Shown here: positions 4,164 through 26,221 of the stretch, in pieces | Numbering within the stretch: the first letter of the stretch is position 1 | Layout of the letters: each line of letters starts with the position of its first letter | Source of the DNA: Escherichia phage vB_EcoM_ESCO10 | Sequence record: OM386655.1 | Strand: one strand, 5' to 3' | DNA length: 64,000 bases | Position numbers and translations under genes: made by a program | The notes under the pieces: generated by a model | Database searches by the model: none | Told to the model about the DNA's origin: nothing | Seen by the model: only the letters and a program-made list of their open reading frames with translations

Positions 4164-5174
4164 TTAACGATAATAGGAATTGTGGTTGTCAAGATATACC
4201 TCTTCAACAAACTTGTCCCAGAACTTCATGTCTACCTTATCGGGCATACCGTTCTTAGCCGCCCAGACGGCATTGGTTTCGACTTCATCGACGATTGCTT
4301 CAAGTTCAGCTTGTACATCTTTAAAAGCGTGTAGGCCTTGTTTGATTTCAAGGATAAATGGAGCCGTACGTAAAGGATATTGGAGATCGCCGGTTTGGTA
4401 AATTTCTTTCAACTGGTATCCAGCACGATAAGCATGGCTCAGAGCTTTCCAGTCAATACCTTCATTGGCTTCGGCCTTACGAGCACGCTCACCGTATTCG
4501 GCATCGAGCTTATTCAGAGATTGCTTGAGCTCGATTAATGACAAAGTGGTCTGGTATTTGCGTCCTAAGACAGTATAGAACGTTTGTGGGCCGGTTTTCT
4601 CATGGTTATGGAATACCCATTCACAGAATTCGTTTTCAGGGAGTCGATGCTTAATATCTTCAACTTTAGTACGACGTTGTTTAGTCGAACCATCTTCTTG
4701 GTAGTCAACCCACTGTTCAGGAATCTGGTTAACAATTGACAGTACACCACGTAATGCAGCTAAACGAGAACCCTTAACACCATACTTAGAAGCTTGCTTA
4801 CGGACGTACCCTAAATATGCTTTCATGTTAGTTGTATAGAACCGAGAACGGTTGTCTTGGATAAATTTCCATACATCTGGTAAATCGGATTTGACTACCA
4901 GGTTAGCCGGAGTATGAATCATATCCAGAGCTACAGTTTCACCTTCAGCGGCCAGTTTAAAGAAATATTTAAGGCTGTAAAGCTCGTGGTCAACATCGTC
5001 TTTAGTGTTTTTGGATGCCGTGTTATTCGTGTTCAAGTTGGTATGGTTCATAGCCGTACCCAACAGAATATCACGCGGGTGTGGAACAAAGATTTCCTTA
5101 AAATCGATATCAGATTCCGGAGTACTTGTTCCATAAAGATGGCTACCGAAGTAGCCCTTCATAACTGTTCTCAT
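4164..5174 (-). CDS. putative nucleotidyltransferase (Pol-beta-type NTase signature)
   Basis: GSHLYGTSTPESDIDF fits G[SG]-x(9-13)-DxD; ATGA overlap with upstream stop; GAGG SD. Confidence 0.45.
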   Translation of the reverse strand: MRTVMKGYFGSHLYGTSTPESDIDFKEIFVPHPRDILLGTAMNHTNLNTNNTASKNTKDDVDHELYSLKYFFKLAAEGETVALDMIHTPANLVVKSDLPDVWKFIQDNRSRFYTTNMKAYLGYVRKQASKYGVKGSRLAALRGVLSIVNQIPEQWVDYQEDGSTKQRRTKVEDIKHRLPENEFCEWVFHNHEKTGPQTFYTVLGRKYQTTLSLIELKQSLNKLDAEYGERARKAEANEGIDWKALSHAYRAGYQLKEIYQTGDLQYPLRTAPFILEIKQGLHAFKDVQAELEAIVDEVETNAVWAAKNGMPDKVDMKFWDKFVEEVYLDNHNSYYR

Positions 5175-7463: not shown

Positions 7464-7850
7464 TTATTCTAACGTTAACAAATACTTAGTTTGGTAAAAG
7501 ACACCAGTGATGTCGTCCAAAGTCGATTGGATGGCCTTAGGAAGATTTTTGTAGATTTTATCAGATGCTTTAATAAGTTCATCAAGAAAATCTATAGGGT
7601 CTTTAGGCAGTTCTGAAGCAGACGGCAGTGATGCTTTATATTCTTTGCCACTAAATCCTAGATACTGCTCACTGAACTGGTCTAGTGGTCCTTGAACTTC
7701 CGTATAATAGAAGTCGTATGCTTTGTGTCTTGCATAGCTTTTGGTTTCCAAATGGGCTGACTTAAAATAGGCTAAAGAAACCAATAGCCAGCCAATATAA
7801 GAATCTACTTCAGTCCCTCGACTAAGTACGAAATCATTGAATTTCATCAT
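7464..7850 (-). CDS. hypothetical protein (position of T4 rI.-1)
   Basis: 128-aa ORF downstream of rI-like gene; hairpin terminator follows. Confidence 0.5.
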   Translation of the reverse strand: MMKFNDFVLSRGTEVDSYIGWLLVSLAYFKSAHLETKSYARHKAYDFYYTEVQGPLDQFSEQYLGFSGKEYKASLPSASELPKDPIDFLDELIKASDKIYKNLPKAIQSTLDDITGVFYQTKYLLTLE

Positions 7851-8225: not shown

Positions 8226-8499
8226 GCTTTTTAAGCTTACTACAATAAGCATAAAATACATCGTTAAAATTTTCAGAAACCCATCCACGCTGTATAGGCG
8301 AAGTAATTGAAAGCAGATAATGTGCTTTAATTAACTCCATCCCATTTTTATTAGGGCATTCTTTATTATTAGCATTATACGTCGCTGCTACAACCTCTAT
8401 CTCTCTTTTGTAAGCCGTATCATCCATGATAGGCAAAAGAACAATATAAGAAATAGCCACAGCTACCGCTAGAATTAAAATCTTTGAATTTAGGTCCAT
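8221..8499 (-). CDS. small membrane protein
   Basis: 92-aa ORF with N-terminal TM helix, between tk and rI-like gene. Confidence 0.5.
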   Translation of the reverse strand: MDLNSKILILAVAVAISYIVLLPIMDDTAYKREIEVVAATYNANNKECPNKNGMELIKAHYLLSITSPIQRGWVSENFNDVFYAYCSKLKKL

Positions 8500-8506
8500 A
8501 GTACCC

Positions 8507-9079
8507 TCAACTCGTTATTTCTATCCAATGCTTCCTGCACAATGACACGTAAGAATCGTTGCCACCTATAGAAACTTGGTCGCCGTCCTTAATTGCGATA
8601 CCATTTTGGATACGAGCTGTCATAGTAGCCTTACGTCCACAATGGCACACACCTTTGTACTCAACGAGTTTATCTGCTGTAGCTAATAATTCAGCAGAGC
8701 CAGGAAACAGTTTACCCTGAAAATCAGTTCTTAGACCGTAACACATGACCGGTATATTATAATTATCTACTATCTTTGCTAATTGTTTTATTTGCAAAGG
8801 TTCTAAGAACTGTGCTTCATCCACAAACACACAGTGGATATCTTTTTGAGATTCAGCCCAACGATAGAACTCGTATAGGTCCATATCTGGAGTCACTGCA
8901 TTAGCCTCTTGGCTAATCCCTATACGAGACGAAATTCTATGGCTTGATTCTCTATTATCTATCGCAGGCTTTAAAAGGAGTACACCCATACCACGTTCTT
9001 TGTAGTTATGGGCCGCCGTTAGCAATGAAGAGGTCTTCCCAGAATTCATCGCAGCATAATGGAAATAAAGTTGGGCCAT
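8507..9079 (-). CDS. tk: thymidine kinase
   Basis: P-loop AAMNSGKT; strong similarity to E. coli Tdk / T4 Tk (MAQLYF..., CYGLRTDF, CRKH) from memory. Confidence 0.95.
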   Translation of the reverse strand: MAQLYFHYAAMNSGKTSSLLTAAHNYKERGMGVLLLKPAIDNRESSHRISSRIGISQEANAVTPDMDLYEFYRWAESQKDIHCVFVDEAQFLEPLQIKQLAKIVDNYNIPVMCYGLRTDFQGKLFPGSAELLATADKLVEYKGVCHCGRKATMTARIQNGIAIKDGDQVSIGGNDSYVSLCRKHWIEITS

Positions 9080-9088
9080 ATTACCTTC

Positions 9089-9277
9089 TTAAAGACTATT
9101 TACATAAGCAATTAATTCGTTTTCTTTCTCATCAAACTGTTCGGCGATTTTTTCGTAATCTTCAGCGCTCACAGGACCCCATTCATCGTATGATTGCATT
9201 CCAGAATTCTCTTCTAGAAGCTCATGGATAAGCTCAAACAATTTATCTTTTTGTTCTTTACTTAGACTCATAACCAT
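9089..9277 (-). CDS. hypothetical small acidic protein
   Basis: Track ORF 9089..9292 starts at TTG; start moved to ATG 9277 behind AAGG SD. Confidence 0.45.
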   Translation of the reverse strand: MVMSLSKEQKDKLFELIHELLEENSGMQSYDEWGPVSAEDYEKIAEQFDEKENELIAYVNSL

Positions 9278-9480
9278 TGCACCTTTAAACAATATTCATC
9301 TACGTGTTGGACACGTTTGTTTTTGTCAATAAAAGTATATTCAACATACTCGCCAATATACCGCTTATCCACATTGTGAGGACTTTTTATAGGACACTTG
9401 GTTACTCGGGTTTCAGTCCAGTGTCGAATAATTTCTGCTTTGTTTTTAGGGTCAAACGGATGTGGGTAATGGGCTTTCAT
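9268..9480 (-). CDS. hypothetical protein
   Basis: 70-aa ORF; overlaps 3' end of macro-domain gene by 29 nt. Confidence 0.4.
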   Translation of the reverse strand: MKAHYPHPFDPKNKAEIIRHWTETRVTKCPIKSPHNVDKRYIGEYVEYTFIDKNKRVQHVDEYCLKVQWL

Positions 9481-9922
9481 AATCTACCACCACTAAATTA
9501 ATATCAGGAGTAAACAAATTAATCAATTGATAAACATTGTCCCAATCACCACCAGCAATACCACAGCCAATGCGAGGAATATAAATTCTCGGTTTAAACA
9601 AAAGACCCTTTGCAGTACGGTTTAATTCTATCATACAGTTTACTAAAGCACCATAATCAAGATTAGGACCTGGTTCATATTGCGTATAAAGATTATAGCA
9701 AATTTGGCCATTATTGCCTGTGGCTTGAGTAAATGTCCCAAGTTTTGCCGCATCACCTAAATAAGTGGCTTCTCTATCAATGGCAAGAATAGGTGAATAA
9801 GCCTTAGCCAATTGACCTGCTACGCCCGAACCCATAGTATGAAAACAGTTACACCCATGAGCAACGTTATTACCTTGAAGAAACAGGGCGACGATATCGC
9901 CCTTAATATAATCAATAATCAT
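9452..9922 (-). CDS. macro-domain protein (putative ADP-ribose binding/processing)
   Basis: N-x(5)-MGSGVAGQLAKA and IGCGIAGGDW resemble the two Gly-rich macro-domain motifs; ATGA overlap with upstream gene. Confidence 0.55.
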   Translation of the reverse strand: MIIDYIKGDIVALFLQGNNVAHGCNCFHTMGSGVAGQLAKAYSPILAIDREATYLGDAAKLGTFTQATGNNGQICYNLYTQYEPGPNLDYGALVNCMIELNRTAKGLLFKPRIYIPRIGCGIAGGDWDNVYQLINLFTPDINLVVVDYESPLPTSV

Positions 9923-10275
9923 TTAGAGTTTAGTCCTCGGTTGTAAGAGTCAACGAGTCTGTCTACCATAGACGCGCACATTTCTTTATACTTTTTATCA
10001 GATGGAACACATTCAGTAACATTTAGACGTTGCTCGTATCTTTTAGAAAGGGTTTTCTCTTTCATTCGACGATGCTCGACGTCATTCTGCCCGTCTTTAA
10101 AAGCAGCTGTTATTTTTGAACTGAATTCAATAACACATTCAGTATTACTTGGATGACAATAATCTTTTGCTGTACGGGTAGCATACTCGACAATTGAATT
10201 ATTGGTATCATCAACCTGTGACGCTAATACTCCCGGAGCAATCAACATAAGCGCTATAGTCATCTGTTTAATCAT
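9919..10275 (-). CDS. secreted Cys-containing protein (signal peptide)
   Basis: N-terminal MIKQMTIALMLIAPGVLASQV; abuts upstream stop. Confidence 0.5.
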   Translation of the reverse strand: MIKQMTIALMLIAPGVLASQVDDTNNSIVEYATRTAKDYCHPSNTECVIEFSSKITAAFKDGQNDVEHRRMKEKTLSKRYEQRLNVTECVPSDKKYKEMCASMVDRLVDSYNRGLNSK

Positions 10276-10815
10276 TTAATATACCGCCTCAAACATCTTT
10301 TTAGATTTTAGGTAATTGGCCTTTTCTAGAACTTCCGAAGCATATTTACTACCTGCTTTGGCATTCCAGCCTGCATTATAAGAAGCAATCGCTTTTCTCA
10401 GGTCACCTTTGTGAACATTAATCCAATACGACAGTTCAATGTAGGCCCAAGAGGCACTGTTCTGTCGGTTTTGGACCATACGAATTATTTCTTTATCTGA
10501 CATCTTCCAACCTACCTGTTTAACACGACTTCTTAACGTAGGCAAGTAATTTTGGAACATGCCATAAGCATGGTGCTTATCTTTATTTAAACCTTGATTA
10601 ATCCCAGCAGATGATTCCTGCCATAATAATCCAGCCATTATATATCCTAATCCTTTTTGATTAGGGGTTTCTTTGAACTTTCCCGACTTTTGGTATTGTT
10701 CACCGAAAGCATACGCGTAATGTAAATTATCGAGTTGTTCATTACTGAAAGTAGGCTCTACGCTATAGGCAGACATACTAACTGTCAATAGTAAAGTGGC
10801 TAATACTTTTTTCAT
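10276..10815 (-). CDS. lytic transglycosylase-like protein with signal peptide
   Basis: Signal peptide MKKVLATLLLTVSMSAYS; catalytic-region-like LWQESSAG...AYGMFQ and AYNAG motif typical of SLT domains. Confidence 0.6.
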   Translation of the reverse strand: MKKVLATLLLTVSMSAYSVEPTFSNEQLDNLHYAYAFGEQYQKSGKFKETPNQKGLGYIMAGLLWQESSAGINQGLNKDKHHAYGMFQNYLPTLRSRVKQVGWKMSDKEIIRMVQNRQNSASWAYIELSYWINVHKGDLRKAIASYNAGWNAKAGSKYASEVLEKANYLKSKKMFEAVY

Positions 10816-10827
10816 GAGACCTCATTA

Positions 10828-11286
10828 TTAAAGATAGATTACTTTAGTGCTCGTTTTACCTTCTAAACGTTTAGAGTTAACAAATGCCATACGACATTTT
10901 AATGAATATCCTTTATCAGGATGTTTACGATCTACAGTCATACCTAACCATAAGGTTTTATCGGTAATCTCGAGACGCAGTGGACGATACACTTTACCTG
11001 GGACAATTTCAGATTCTACATCAGGCATAGGTTCCTGGATTAAAAATTCATGGATTTCTTTAACATGGTTATGGAGTTGCTTGAATAAAGCAAAAACGTA
11101 TTTTTCGTCAATTTCACGTTGGATAGCACGGTCCAATAGGTGATTAGAGTACTTAATAAAGAAAGCTGGGACTCCACTCTTAATGGCGGCTTTTTTGATG
11201 GATGTATTCAGTTCACGAAATTCGGTTTCGAACTGACGACGTAATTTGTTGCGGCGGATGAATACTTCTGAATTAATTTCTGACAT
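10828..11286 (-). CDS. regB: RegB site-specific endoribonuclease
   Basis: 152 aa; strong similarity to T4 RegB (EVFIRRNKLRR...HLLDRAIQREIDE) from memory; AGGAGAAA SD; early-promoter cassette. Confidence 0.85.
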   Translation of the reverse strand: MSEINSEVFIRRNKLRRQFETEFRELNTSIKKAAIKSGVPAFFIKYSNHLLDRAIQREIDEKYVFALFKQLHNHVKEIHEFLIQEPMPDVESEIVPGKVYRPLRLEITDKTLWLGMTVDRKHPDKGYSLKCRMAFVNSKRLEGKTSTKVIYL

Positions 11287-11313
11287 TTTGTTTCTCCTGT
11301 AGTTGATAGGTTT

Positions 11314-11342
11314 ATAGTATCATGCCTACAGGAGATGTAAAC
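11314..11342 (-). promoter_or_regulatory. early promoter cassette upstream of regB
   Basis: GTTTAC 11337..11342, TACTAT 11314..11319; inverted repeat CCTGTAG/CTACAGG (11296..11302, 11326..11332) overlapping the SD. Confidence 0.6.
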
Positions 11343-11346
11343 TGCT

Positions 11347-11556
11347 TTATTCTTGGAATGGTGTGAGTTTTCCAGCTATCGAACAAATTTCTACCATTGC
11401 AGGATAAAACTCTTTCACTTGTTCAAGGCGCTGGACAGCGTACCGCATTTCGCCTTCTTCAAGACAAGCAACCTGGTCATCGAGCAAATATTTGTGGTAA
11501 CCGGTACAGGCTTCGCTAATGATACGTTGGAATTCTTGCAAACTTTCAATTTTCAC
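11347..11556 (-). CDS. hypothetical protein
   Basis: Track ORF 11347..11598 overlaps upstream gene; proposed GTG start at 11556 behind GAGGAAAAA SD; start uncertain. Confidence 0.4.
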   Translation of the reverse strand: MKIESLQEFQRIISEACTGYHKYLLDDQVACLEEGEMRYAVQRLEQVKEFYPAMVEICSIAGKLTPFQE

Positions 11557-11819
11557 TAGTATTTTTCCTCGGGTCGAAATACTGCACGACATGCCCACAT
11601 GCTGGCTTCTTTTAGATGTTGCTTAGCATACTTAAGAGCCTGCACCGCATCCATATCTTCTTTGGTTTGTTGCTCTGTTTCATTTTCTTTCAAGATATAT
11701 GCTTCTTCAATCAGAGCATCAAACATCAATCCAAGACGGACTTCTGCATCTTTAATAGCGTTCACTTTACCGATTTTATCGTCGGTATGCGGCTTGTAAC
11801 CTTTGATGTCTTCAATCAT
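11556..11819 (-). CDS. hypothetical protein
   Basis: 87-aa ORF; ATGA overlap with upstream gene. Confidence 0.5.
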   Translation of the reverse strand: MIEDIKGYKPHTDDKIGKVNAIKDAEVRLGLMFDALIEEAYILKENETEQQTKEDMDAVQALKYAKQHLKEASMWACRAVFRPEEKY

Positions 11820-12034
11820 TTCACTTCCTCACCAGTTGCGATATCATATTCTACCAAACGAAGCCCATCCGTCCAACCTTGTACGGAGATATAAGTGGTC
11901 GGATAAACCATTTCTTTACCATTCCATTGACCACCGTCCCAGACTTCCAGAAAGTCTTGTTCACCGGGTCCATTAAACCATTCAACGAATCTTTTCAAGG
12001 CTACATCAGAGCCTTCAATCGTCAGTTTAGACAT
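11816..12034 (-). CDS. hypothetical protein
   Basis: Track ORF 11816..12073; start placed at ATG 12034 overlapping upstream stop; alternatives 12049, 12073. Confidence 0.4.
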   Translation of the reverse strand: MSKLTIEGSDVALKRFVEWFNGPGEQDFLEVWDGGQWNGKEMVYPTTYISVQGWTDGLRLVEYDIATGEEVK

Positions 12035-12323
12035 ATTTTTTCCAGTCATTAACCATACGAATCTCTTGGTCATATGTCAAGAGGCTACGAGTTATAATAC
12101 CCTTACATGGTCCTGAGATGAACTCTAGAGTGAAGTAAGGAACTTGTTTCATTAATCGGATACTTGGGGCATGGCATCTAAAACGAGAGCCTGTAAATGG
12201 CCCTGACATGAACACGTATTCTAATGGATAGAAATATGCGTATTCAAAATTTATAGTAAGGTCTTCTCTTCGAACCTTACGTGAGAAATAGCAGAACTCA
12301 AAAAGCTCTTCATCAGTCATCAT
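12027..12323 (-). CDS. hypothetical protein
   Basis: 98-aa ORF; ATGA overlap with upstream gene. Confidence 0.5.
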   Translation of the reverse strand: MMTDEELFEFCYFSRKVRREDLTINFEYAYFYPLEYVFMSGPFTGSRFRCHAPSIRLMKQVPYFTLEFISGPCKGIITRSLLTYDQEIRMVNDWKKYV

Positions 12324-12859
12324 TGCATTCCAATCACAAAAAATTGAGGTCGAGTATTACCACCAATGCAAAATTTACTATCGCAGCAGTACTGTACAGT
12401 GTCAATATGGGCACTATAAATCTTATCCATATCAGGAGATTTAATAGGCTCATCAATTATATACAAAATTCGCGAAAGCTTTAAACCTCTGAACTTGCTT
12501 CCTTTATTACCGATAAAGCTACGTAATGAATCATGGAAAAGCCGGTAACGAATATCTTCCGCGCTAAAACGAATAAAATCATTTTTGATAGAATCGGATG
12601 AAATTTTAGCGTAAGCTGAAGTATTAGAAAGAACAATAACTGTTCCGCCATCATATAACCAATTGGCAGCAAAGTTAGTCACAGCAATTGATTTACCGGA
12701 TTGACGTCCACCATCTATACGAAGTGTGCAATACTGTTTAAGTACGTCTTCAAATGGCGGGATATAATCGTTTTTACAAAGTTCTTCTATTCGAGCATCA
12801 GAATGGTGGGTAAAAGCATTCATCAGGGATAGATAAGGTCCGGTTAAAAAAGTTCTCAT
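12320..12859 (-). CDS. P-loop protein (Walker A/B)
   Basis: GGRQSGKS and ILYIIDE motifs; start placed at ATG 12859 behind AAGAGAAA SD (track start 12910). Confidence 0.5.
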   Translation of the reverse strand: MRTFLTGPYLSLMNAFTHHSDARIEELCKNDYIPPFEDVLKQYCTLRIDGGRQSGKSIAVTNFAANWLYDGGTVIVLSNTSAYAKISSDSIKNDFIRFSAEDIRYRLFHDSLRSFIGNKGSKFRGLKLSRILYIIDEPIKSPDMDKIYSAHIDTVQYCCDSKFCIGGNTRPQFFVIGMQ

Positions 12860-13021
12860 ATTGTTTCTCTTAAGGTTTTGGGGCCATTCCTTGGCACATA
12901 ATTCATCCATGTATCCGTATGTAACCCTTTACCGCACTTGGGCTCGACCTTATTACAGGTAGGGAAAGGTCCATCACTCAGAGGACGCGACGTTCATGAG
13001 GAGAGGGCCGGCTTGCCTTTA

Positions 13022-13321
13022 TTAGAAAGAACCAGAGCCTTTAATTGTATTCTGACGTCCTTTATTTTCTACTTCAGAGTGGTCGATTTCGTAAGCTTGT
13101 GCTACACCAAAGGATTTTTTAATTTTAGCCAATGAGCCTTTAGAAATAACAATGTTAAAGGTGTTGCCTTTAGAAAAATCAACCAACTCTACAGTAACAC
13201 CGTTATTGGTTAAACTATTAACAATAGCATCAACATATTGCTGGTCTAAAGTTCCCTGAACGCCAATTTGAAAAGCTTTAGGTGCTTTAGCTTCAGTGAT
13301 AAATTCTTGATATGTTTTCAT
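13022..13321 (-). CDS. internal-protein-like head cargo protein (capsid-targeting N-terminus)
   Basis: Begins MKTYQEFITEAK, matching the T4 IPI/II/III capsid targeting sequence MKTYQEFIAE; AAGGAATAAT SD. Confidence 0.7.
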   Translation of the reverse strand: MKTYQEFITEAKAPKAFQIGVQGTLDQQYVDAIVNSLTNNGVTVELVDFSKGNTFNIVISKGSLAKIKKSFGVAQAYEIDHSEVENKGRQNTIKGSGSF

Positions 13322-13329
13322 ATTATTCC

Positions 13330-13689
13330 TTAAAGATGGTCAAGGGCTGGGTTATGAGGTTTTTCTGCTTTAGTAGTGTTTTTATGCCAATCTGATTTAG
13401 AAACACGGATGGCATCAGCGCCATAAGAACTCTTAAGGAGACCTTTTTTATTGTACACACTTATTGAAGTAAGAGAATCACCATTCCATGTAGCATGAAT
13501 GAAGTTAGATTTAGATTTAAGTTCTTTAGCCAAGCTCTGGTTAGTGGCCATGGAAGCAAAGTCTATACCTGTAACTTTAAAAACTTCAGATGGGTTCAGC
13601 CCTTCTTTAGCCTTAGCCAATTGTTCAGGAGACATACCTTCGTTAATGCGCTGAGTAGATTCAGTAATAAATTGTTTGTAAGTTTTCAT
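13330..13689 (-). CDS. internal-protein-like head cargo protein
   Basis: Begins MKTYKQFITEST; AAGGAATAAT SD; early-like promoter upstream. Confidence 0.7.
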   Translation of the reverse strand: MKTYKQFITESTQRINEGMSPEQLAKAKEGLNPSEVFKVTGIDFASMATNQSLAKELKSKSNFIHATWNGDSLTSISVYNKKGLLKSSYGADAIRVSKSDWHKNTTKAEKPHNPALDHL

Positions 13690-14738: not shown

Positions 14739-15188
14739 TTAGAACATCGAGCTCAGAACCTTATACATCGACTGGCCCATGACATATTCCCATTGTGGAC
14801 GTTTAATCAAGGCGAAAGCATCGAACTCAGGAATACTACGACCGTCAGGGAACGTATGATAAGCAGTACATTTGCAATTCTTGAACTGCTCGTGTTCCAC
14901 AGGCACAGTATATAAGAACAGGTGTAGATTCTTATTGCTAGAATATTTGAACTCACCTAGGTCTTTCAGGAACGCAGGGTCATATGCAGTGAATCCAATC
15001 TCTTCTTCGGTTTCACGCATAGCGGCTTGAATTGGTTCTTCACCCAGTTCAACATGACCTTTAGGAATGTCCCATTTATGACGCATATTCTCTGGATTAC
15101 GAGAACCTGTTACACGGCCCATGACTAGTTCTTTATCAACGGTCATGAACAAAATACCTGCTGATAGTTCTTTAACTTTCTTACTCAT
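14739..15188 (-). CDS. nudE: Nudix hydrolase
   Basis: Nudix box [23 protein letters not shown]; 149 aa (T4 NudE about 151); start moved to ATG 15188; directly downstream of e as in T4. Confidence 0.8.
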
Positions 15189-15417
15189 CGTCTCGTTTCC
15201 ATGATTGGTTAAAAATATCTTGCATAATAATTTCAAGGCGGGTTTCTGTTGATGGACTTTCACTATTAGATACTTGAACCATATAGTCGGAAATAGGACG
15301 GAACATATCCAAGTCACTTTCTAAATCTTCTTTTATTTTCTCTTCCGATGCTCCAGTATCATAGGAATACAGATAAGAATCGCATGATTCAGATTTAACA
15401 TAAATCGCAATACTCAT
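15181..15417 (-). CDS. hypothetical acidic protein
   Basis: Start by ATGA overlap with upstream stop (alternative ATG 15426). Confidence 0.45.
   Translation of the reverse strand: MSIAIYVKSESCDSYLYSYDTGASEEKIKEDLESDLDMFRPISDYMVQVSNSESPSTETRLEIIMQDIFNQSWKRDDE

Positions 15418-25543: not shown

Positions 25544-26221
<678 letters not shown>

Follow-up and report, generated by a model that had tools for sequence, protein, structure and literature searches.

The tk.4/adfM ortholog of a Dhakavirus encodes a macrodomain protein with a glutamine-type active site and a likely role against the toxin DarT2

The tk.4 locus and its surroundings

The window (i.e. the whole 64,000-nt stretch of DNA that was analysed) comes from a T-even phage of the JS98/IME08/VR5-like kind, a Dhakavirus. 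The Dhakavirus phages VR5, IME08, Bp7, QL01 and WG01 match its tk.4 region with 92-99% identity, and tk.4 is the name borne by the corresponding gene in IME08. The open reading frame had been listed in a preliminary description without a strand; it is real, lies on the minus strand, begins with ATG and has a GC content of 38% (window, 39%). It belongs to a tightly packed run of minus-strand genes (Table 1), the late baseplate genes being encoded on the plus strand. Between regB and tk, neighbouring genes either overlap or leave gaps of no more than 12 nt, the stop of vs and the start of tk.4 share 4 nt (ATGA), and the nearest upstream intergenic gap is the 60 nt before regB (11287..11346).

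The gene order regB-vs.1-vs-tk.4-tk.3-tk.2-tk is common to the window, IME08 and T4. The T4 Tk.4 protein is 54% identical to the window protein over 155 aa, i.e. over the full length (E 7e-64). This identity, together with the synteny, makes the window gene the ortholog of T4 tk.4. The two proteins are of equal length, are both encoded between vs and tk.3, and share the motifs H-G-C-N-C, NLYTQ and PRIG-G. They differ in the phosphate-binding loop, which reads GCGIAGGDW in the window (the family consensus) and GAGIGKGNW in T4 Tk.4.

Among close relatives the gene shows low dN/dS values (0.06 against IME08, 0.18 against VR5), which indicates purifying selection. A local difference from VR5 was found downstream. 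In VR5 (8799..9728) a homing-endonuclease gene sits between tk and tk.2 and tk.3 is missing, whereas the corresponding part of the window (9080..9480) has no homing endonuclease and carries tk.3, whose start overlaps the end of tk.4. The C-terminal tails of the two Tk.4 proteins differ as a result (ESPLPTSV in the window, EPK in VR5). Beyond the genus the family is widespread, with matches in 2,667 phage records from many genera and unrelated phage groups; an exhaustive profile search recovered 9,454 cluster representatives at E <= 1e-10, of which 1,316 pass E <= 1e-30.

Other minus-strand features of the window include a putative nrdC.11-type nucleotidyltransferase (4164..5174, PHROG 388), an ortholog of rI.-1/MobD.6 with the putative label "starvation-inducible transcriptional regulator" (7464..7850, PHROG 858), and adjacent genes for tRNA-Arg(TCT) and tRNA-Met(CAT) (23909..24064), arranged as in VR5.

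Table 1. Features of the regB-to-tk run and active-site residues of the Tk.4 ortholog
Feature	Coordinates	Strand	Evidence
Candidate T4-early-type promoter GTTTACA-16-TACTAT before regB	11314..11341	-	consensus scan and sequence
regB endoribonuclease, first gene of the run	10828..11286	-	PHROG 1323, E 6e-72
vs.1 ortholog, upstream in the run	10276..10815	-	PHROG 600; synteny with T4 and IME08
vs (valyl-tRNA synthetase modifier), directly upstream of tk.4	9919..10275	-	PHROG 1256, E 4e-34
tk.4/adfM ortholog, single-domain macrodomain protein, 156 aa	9452..9922	-	ORF, Pfam, identity to T4, AlphaFold2 and Foldseek
First Gly-rich (substrate-binding) loop, residues 22-41, HGCNCFHTMGSGVAGQLAKA, with H22, N25 and T29	9800..9859	-	alignments
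NLYTQ, residues 77-81; Q81 at the catalytic-lysine position of TARG1/DarG	9680..9694	-	alignments
Second Gly-rich (phosphate-binding) loop, residues 116-127, PRIGCGIAGGDW	9542..9577	-	alignments
tk.3 ortholog, sharing 29 nt with the 3' end of tk.4	9268..9480	-	PHROG 2008, E 1e-37
tk thymidine kinase, last gene of the run examined	8507..9079	-	PHROG 592, E 5e-87
H22 = SCO6735 His24 = Poa1p His23			alignment
G23 = SCO6735 Val25			alignment
N25 = SCO6735 Asn27			alignment
T29 = Poa1p Ser30			alignment
Q81 = SCO6735 Gln85 (through BT1257) = TARG1 Lys84			alignment
G119 and G121 = SCO6735 Gly126 and Gly128			alignment
A123 = SCO6735 Ala130 = TARG1 Asp125			alignment

The candidate promoter before regB is probably the source of the transcript that reaches tk.4. 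Across 8300..13500 the scan returned 17 promoter-like sites, a number not above chance (14.7 expected from shuffles). From the position of tk.4 in the operon and from the early-type promoter before regB, early expression of the gene appears plausible. The ribosome-binding site of regB contains GGAG, the motif cleaved by RegB in T4.

Inside tk.4, at codons 91-99, lies a MotA-box-like motif (TGCTTTA-13-TAGAAT; 9625..9650, minus strand) that is identical in IME08 and VR5; T4 tk.4 has cGCTTTA-13-TAGAAT at the same place. Judged by its sequence, the motif could drive tk.3, tk.2 and tk; it is one of six matches on the whole minus strand and is not significant alone. A terminator-like hairpin (9885..9903, minus strand; 8-bp, GC-rich, AGGGCGAT ATC GTCGCCCT, with a weak T-run) is found 20 nt into tk.4. 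It is the only one near the gene and was rejected as a terminator: it lies inside the coding sequence for the conserved KGDIVAL and its T-run is weak, so that it is probably a coding coincidence.

Macrodomain fold and active site

Profile searches and the predicted structure agree that the product is a genuine macrodomain, and the macro-domain call of the preliminary description was thus correct. Pfam Macro (PF01661) matches the Tk.4 ortholog with E 8.9e-7 and 29.3 bits (gathering score 22), and the match spans positions 2-117 of the 118-position profile. When the single sequence was searched against the PDB, it found Bacteroides BT1257 (E about 1e-8), SCO6735, Poa1p, DarG and TARG1. When a family profile built from 69 homologs was used, the same proteins were matched with E values of 3e-20 (BT1257), 2e-17 (TARG1), 8e-17 (SCO6735), 2e-13 (Poa1p) and 5e-11 (DarG). 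The AlphaFold2 model (mean pLDDT 94.7, pTM 0.89) has six strands and five helices in the canonical macrodomain layout, with the six-stranded sheet flanked by the five helices. Foldseek aligned this model to TARG1, Poa1p, BT1257, DarG and SCO6735 in the PDB with probability 1.00 and TM 0.70-0.78; coronavirus Mac1 domains rank below these five.

Both Gly-rich motifs that had been pointed out earlier were found, as MGSGVAGQLAKA at residues 30-41 and as IGCGIAGGDW at residues 118-127. The Asn placed before the first motif is indeed conserved (N25), although its spacing had been misread: it is N-x4-MGSG (or N-x5-G) and not N-x5-MGSG. The two Gly-rich loops of the ADP-ribose cleft (residues 30-35 and 118-125) are conserved in homologs, with G33, G119, G121 and G125 retained in 249-261 of 262 family sequences.

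Residue equivalences (Table 1) were read from HMMER alignments and from the numbering of the SCO6735 paper, which equals the PDB chain index minus 20. This numbering was confirmed, as His24, Val25, Asn27, Gln85, Lys89, Gly126 and Gly128 of SCO6735 all fall on the right letters. The absence of the predicted ligand-binding residues from homologs would have spoken against the macrodomain call; these residues are instead invariant across the 262 family sequences. N25, Q81 and G33 are each retained in 261 of them, H22 in 256, N77, Y79 and Q81 each in 260-261, and G119 and G121 in 258; 259 have Ala or Gly at position 123. At the variable position 29, Thr occurs in 147 of the 262 sequences, Val in 23 and Ser in 21.

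Gln85 of SCO6735 has been stated to be equivalent to Lys80 of DarG and Lys84 of TARG1, and mutants of Gln85 and of Asn27 lose activity (PMC9411070). The ADP-ribose that DarT places on thymidine is removed by SCO6735 both in vitro and in cells, and the enzyme rescues E. coli from DarT (PMC9411070). Given that Q81 is invariant (the NLYTQF of T4 AdfM included), the whole phage family is of the Gln type, like SCO6735 and BT1257. By its aligned residues it is not of the Lys type, unlike DarG, TARG1 and the AdfM of PhiKZ (N23, K78). What is new here is that, in alignment, the active-site constellation of T-even AdfM (H22, N25, Q81, G119, G121, A123) matches that of SCO6735.

Comparison with characterised macrodomains

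BT1257 is the best sequence match of the Tk.4 ortholog, and the His, Asn, Gln and Gly-x-Gly-x-Ala-Gly-Gly positions align with SCO6735/BT1257. The window protein has the residues of this subclass, with Gln where the catalytic Lys would stand, and with the conserved Asn and the phosphate-loop Gly. The differences lie elsewhere. SCO6735 and BT1257 are chromosomal and strongly basic, whereas the window protein is phage-encoded and acidic (pI 4.9, with 5.9 for T4 Tk.4 and 8.4-9.5 for BT1257, TARG1 and SCO6735), and the mobile loop that follows its Gln is shorter by 6 residues. Eight residues separate Q81 from Y90, compared with 14 in BT1257; the family has 8 in 141 and 14 in 10 of 262 sequences. 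The mobile loop of SCO6735/BT1257 type, which exceeds that of TARG1 and DarG by about five residues, is absent from the window protein.

With DarG the protein shares the macrodomain fold and the conserved Asn, and both would remove DarT2 adducts. The PADLOC DarG model gives the window protein 21.8 bits and T4 Tk.4 34.5 bits, with the match limited to the macrodomain half (positions 3-142 of 329). Identity with DarG was nevertheless rejected. The score against the curated equivalog model (NCBIfam NF048014) is 17.3 bits with a cut-off of 250, the 156-aa protein has no C-terminal DarT-binding domain, and its gene has vs and tk.3 as neighbours and no darT. Gln81 also stands in place of the catalytic Lys80, an equivalence drawn via TARG1 K84 and SCO6735 Gln85 and not from a direct DarG alignment. 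The Tk.4 ortholog thus resembles DarG's enzymatic half in its mode of action without itself being a DarG. A DarG-like C-terminal half was sought in the larger multi-domain family members and none was found. What the exhaustive search did reveal is a 472-aa Macro-NADAR-DUF4326 fusion (P0226) and a DUF4326-Macro fusion (P0248). Their domain composition suggests that such fusions may combine, in one chain, the removal of thymine-linked and of guanine-linked ADP-ribose from DNA.

Human TARG1 (OARD1) is the top Foldseek match (TM 0.75-0.77, profile E 2e-17) and likewise reverses thymine- and uracil-linked ADP-ribose (PMC13036486). It was rejected as an identity, as its dyad Lys84/Asp125 is replaced by Gln81/Ala123; moreover TARG1 has a Ser where the window protein has Asn25. 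The chimallivirus AdfM, PhiKZ gp104, is similar in being a single phage macrodomain that counters DarTG2 and removes ADP-ribose from DNA (PMC13309987). It is DarG2-like, with Asn23/Lys78, and is imported into the phage nucleus (PMC13309987). T-even AdfM has a Gln instead, the two proteins being compared by published description. T-even phages are not known to form a phage nucleus. Yeast Poa1p, an ADP-ribose-1''-phosphate phosphatase, shares the N-terminal motif H-x-C-N-C-x3-[MW]-G-x-G-[IV]-A-x-Q-L-A and the fold (TM 0.77). In the single-sequence search it aligns over residues 3-43 only, and its function is unrelated to phage defence.

Probable function against DarT2 and competing readings

Part of the picture was already known, i.e. 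the domain assignment since 2006 and the anti-DarTG2 role in T4 since 2025. Nolan et al. had matched tk.4 orthologs to the A1pp/macro "phosphatase" domain in 2006 (PMC1524935), and the "phosphatase" label in RefSeq and PHROG 335 goes back to this match. Some phage records are already labelled "Macro domain, Poa1p_like", and Iyer et al. found macro domains in 41% of myoviruses in 2022 (PMC9503650). In the HIDEN-SEQ preprint a T4 transposon library was screened on a host with DarTG2, where no gene other than tk.4 gave a significant signal; a clean tk.4 knockout made T4 sensitive to DarTG2, and the gene was renamed adfM, for anti-DarT factor Macrodomain (bioRxiv 10.1101/2025.11.20.689424). The removal of ADP-ribose from DNA by T4 AdfM is the proposal of these authors, whose evidence is genetic (bioRxiv 10.1101/2025.11.20.689424). 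Biochemical evidence comes from chimalliviruses, whose macrodomain AdfM proteins remove DarT2 adducts from DNA (Cell Reports 2026, PMC13309987). The NADAR protein T4 30.3/AdfN acts likewise on the guanine adducts of DarT1 (PMC11825919). The literature searched contained no enzyme assay on an AdfM from a T-even phage, and the CmdTAC paper makes no mention of phage macrodomains.

Against this background the window gene is read as the Dhakavirus adfM, and we consider it quite probable that its product, most likely made before replication from the regB-to-tk transcript, strips DarT2-made ADP-ribose from phage DNA. The suggestion in the preliminary description of a role against DarT-type toxins is supported by the T4 ortholog, the sole T4 gene required on the DarTG2 host. 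We infer the anti-DarT2 function of this particular allele, as well as its chemistry and the timing of its expression. The host toxin DarT2 modifies thymidines of single-stranded DNA with ADP-ribose (at TNTC motifs) and thereby blocks phage replication. In the proposed scenario the two Gly-rich loops of AdfM would hold the diphosphate and the distal ribose of the adduct, N25 and Q81 would, as in SCO6735, hold substrate and water in place, and hydrolysis of the thymine-ribose N-glycosidic bond would yield unmodified DNA and free ADP-ribose. As it is without the second, DarT-binding domain of DarG, AdfM would act as an orphan, purely enzymatic antitoxin.

Besides the fold, the orthology to T4 tk.4, the SCO6735-like residues, the chimallivirus enzymes and the low dN/dS, two further observations favour the anti-DarT2 scenario. 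DarG is the sole PADLOC match of both the window protein and T4 Tk.4, and the family member P0226 is fused to a NADAR domain, a fold that reverses guanine-linked DNA ADP-ribosylation (PMC11825919). Several points weigh against it. The T4 evidence is genetic and from a preprint, and the window allele is only 54% identical to that of T4, with different phosphate-binding loops. According to the alignments, Gln appears to replace the catalytic Lys of DarG, TARG1 and PhiKZ AdfM. The long mobile loop has been credited with the strong DNA activity of SCO6735 (PMC9411070), and the window protein is without this loop, has a pI of 4.9 and scores 17 bits against the DarG cut-off of 250. Conceivably these features mark the T-even AdfM family as a mechanistically distinct anti-DarT enzyme with a Gln-type site, a short mobile loop and an acidic surface, which we regard as a tentative and rather unlikely extension. 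If it were true, the range of AdfM could exceed DarT2 DNA adducts, and the enzyme might also remove uracil-linked RNA or glutamate-linked protein ADP-ribose, as SCO6735 does. AdfM would then be a general eraser that also covers defence ADP-ribosyltransferases still to be found.

Three other readings were weighed against DNA repair. The protein could be a metabolite enzyme similar to Poa1p that dephosphorylates ADP-ribose-1''-phosphate or deacylates O-acetyl-ADP-ribose and so clears by-products of RNA repair or sirtuins. The "phosphatase" label of PHROG 335 and of RefSeq relatives and the A1pp match of 2006 point in this direction, as does the place of Poa1p among the top fold and profile matches. 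H22 and T29 align with His23 and Ser30 of Poa1p, the two positions mutated by the depositors of PDB 6lfs and 6lft; H22 is present in the window protein, and the Ser30 position is a Thr that varies across the family. The label, however, reflects domain naming and not any test, and past the first 45 residues BT1257, SCO6735 and TARG1 align better than Poa1p. Activity on ADP-ribose-1''-phosphate or O-acetyl-ADP-ribose in vitro is moreover a side reaction of many macrodomains. With a T4 knockout phenotype that is specific to DarTG2, a metabolic role seems improbable. Still less credible, to a degree that makes it highly improbable, is a reversal or tuning of the ADP-ribosylation that the phage itself carries out on proteins through Alt, ModA and ModB. 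This idea had been put forward in the preliminary description and finds no support here, since Alt and Mod modify arginine, whereas the linkages cleaved by macrodomains of the TARG1 kind are O-linked esters and bonds to bases. It is DraG/ARH-type enzymes that take ADP-ribose off arginine. The premise that such a phage has ADP-ribosyltransferases of its own is borne out in IME08, a close relative: elsewhere in its genome it carries modA, modB and two alt genes, along with 30.3. The window itself contains none of these mod and alt genes. SCO6735 and TARG1 do also act on glutamate-linked ADP-ribose of proteins, and an arginine-specific macrodomain, Legionella MavL, exists. Yet tk.4 has no alt or mod gene beside it, its family is spread over many unrelated groups of phages, and the T4 knockout phenotype appeared only on the DarTG2 host.

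The remaining reading holds that the protein binds or degrades ADP-ribose-derived immune signals (e.g. of the Thoeris type) or reverses RNA ADP-ribosylation, instead of or besides DNA repair. According to one proposal, the preferred ligands of phage macrodomains are soluble ADP-ribose derivatives made by host defence systems (PMC9503650); weak matches to the ThsA macro model occur in some family members, and uracil-linked RNA ADP-ribose is reversed by TARG1, DarG and SCO6735 (PMC13036486). By analogy, because all three enzymes have it, activity on uracil-linked RNA ADP-ribose is plausible for AdfM as an extra. On the other side, there is no known genetic or biochemical link to such signals or RNA. 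SCO6735 does not reverse ADP-ribosylation at the 2'-OH of RNA and was reported to have no activity on 5'-phosphate ends, and the only PADLOC match of the window protein is DarG. We therefore give this reading a low probability, too, and retain the removal of DarT2-made ADP-ribose from phage DNA as the best explanation.

DarTG systems stop phages through DNA ADP-ribosylation, and T-even phages appear to have matched erasers, with AdfN (NADAR) for the guanine adducts of DarT1 and AdfM for the thymine adducts of DarT2. The presence of adfM in a genome helps to predict the growth of therapeutic or model phages on strains that carry DarTG2. Its recognition also corrects uninformative "phosphatase" or "hypothetical protein" labels on hundreds of records.

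The window also encodes a nudE-type Nudix hydrolase (14739..15317, minus strand; PHROG 1185, E 2.5e-71). T4 NudE.1 is reported to hydrolyse ADP-ribose, the product that is released by the macrodomain. By analogy, the nudE-type hydrolase and the macrodomain could together form a clearance route for ADP-ribose.

An ortholog of T4 57B is located at 25544..25999 (minus strand; PHROG 755) under the label "RNA ligase". In T4, 57B is the anti-CBASS nuclease Acb1 (bioRxiv 10.1101/2025.11.20.689424), which makes it a second mislabelled counter-defence gene in the window.
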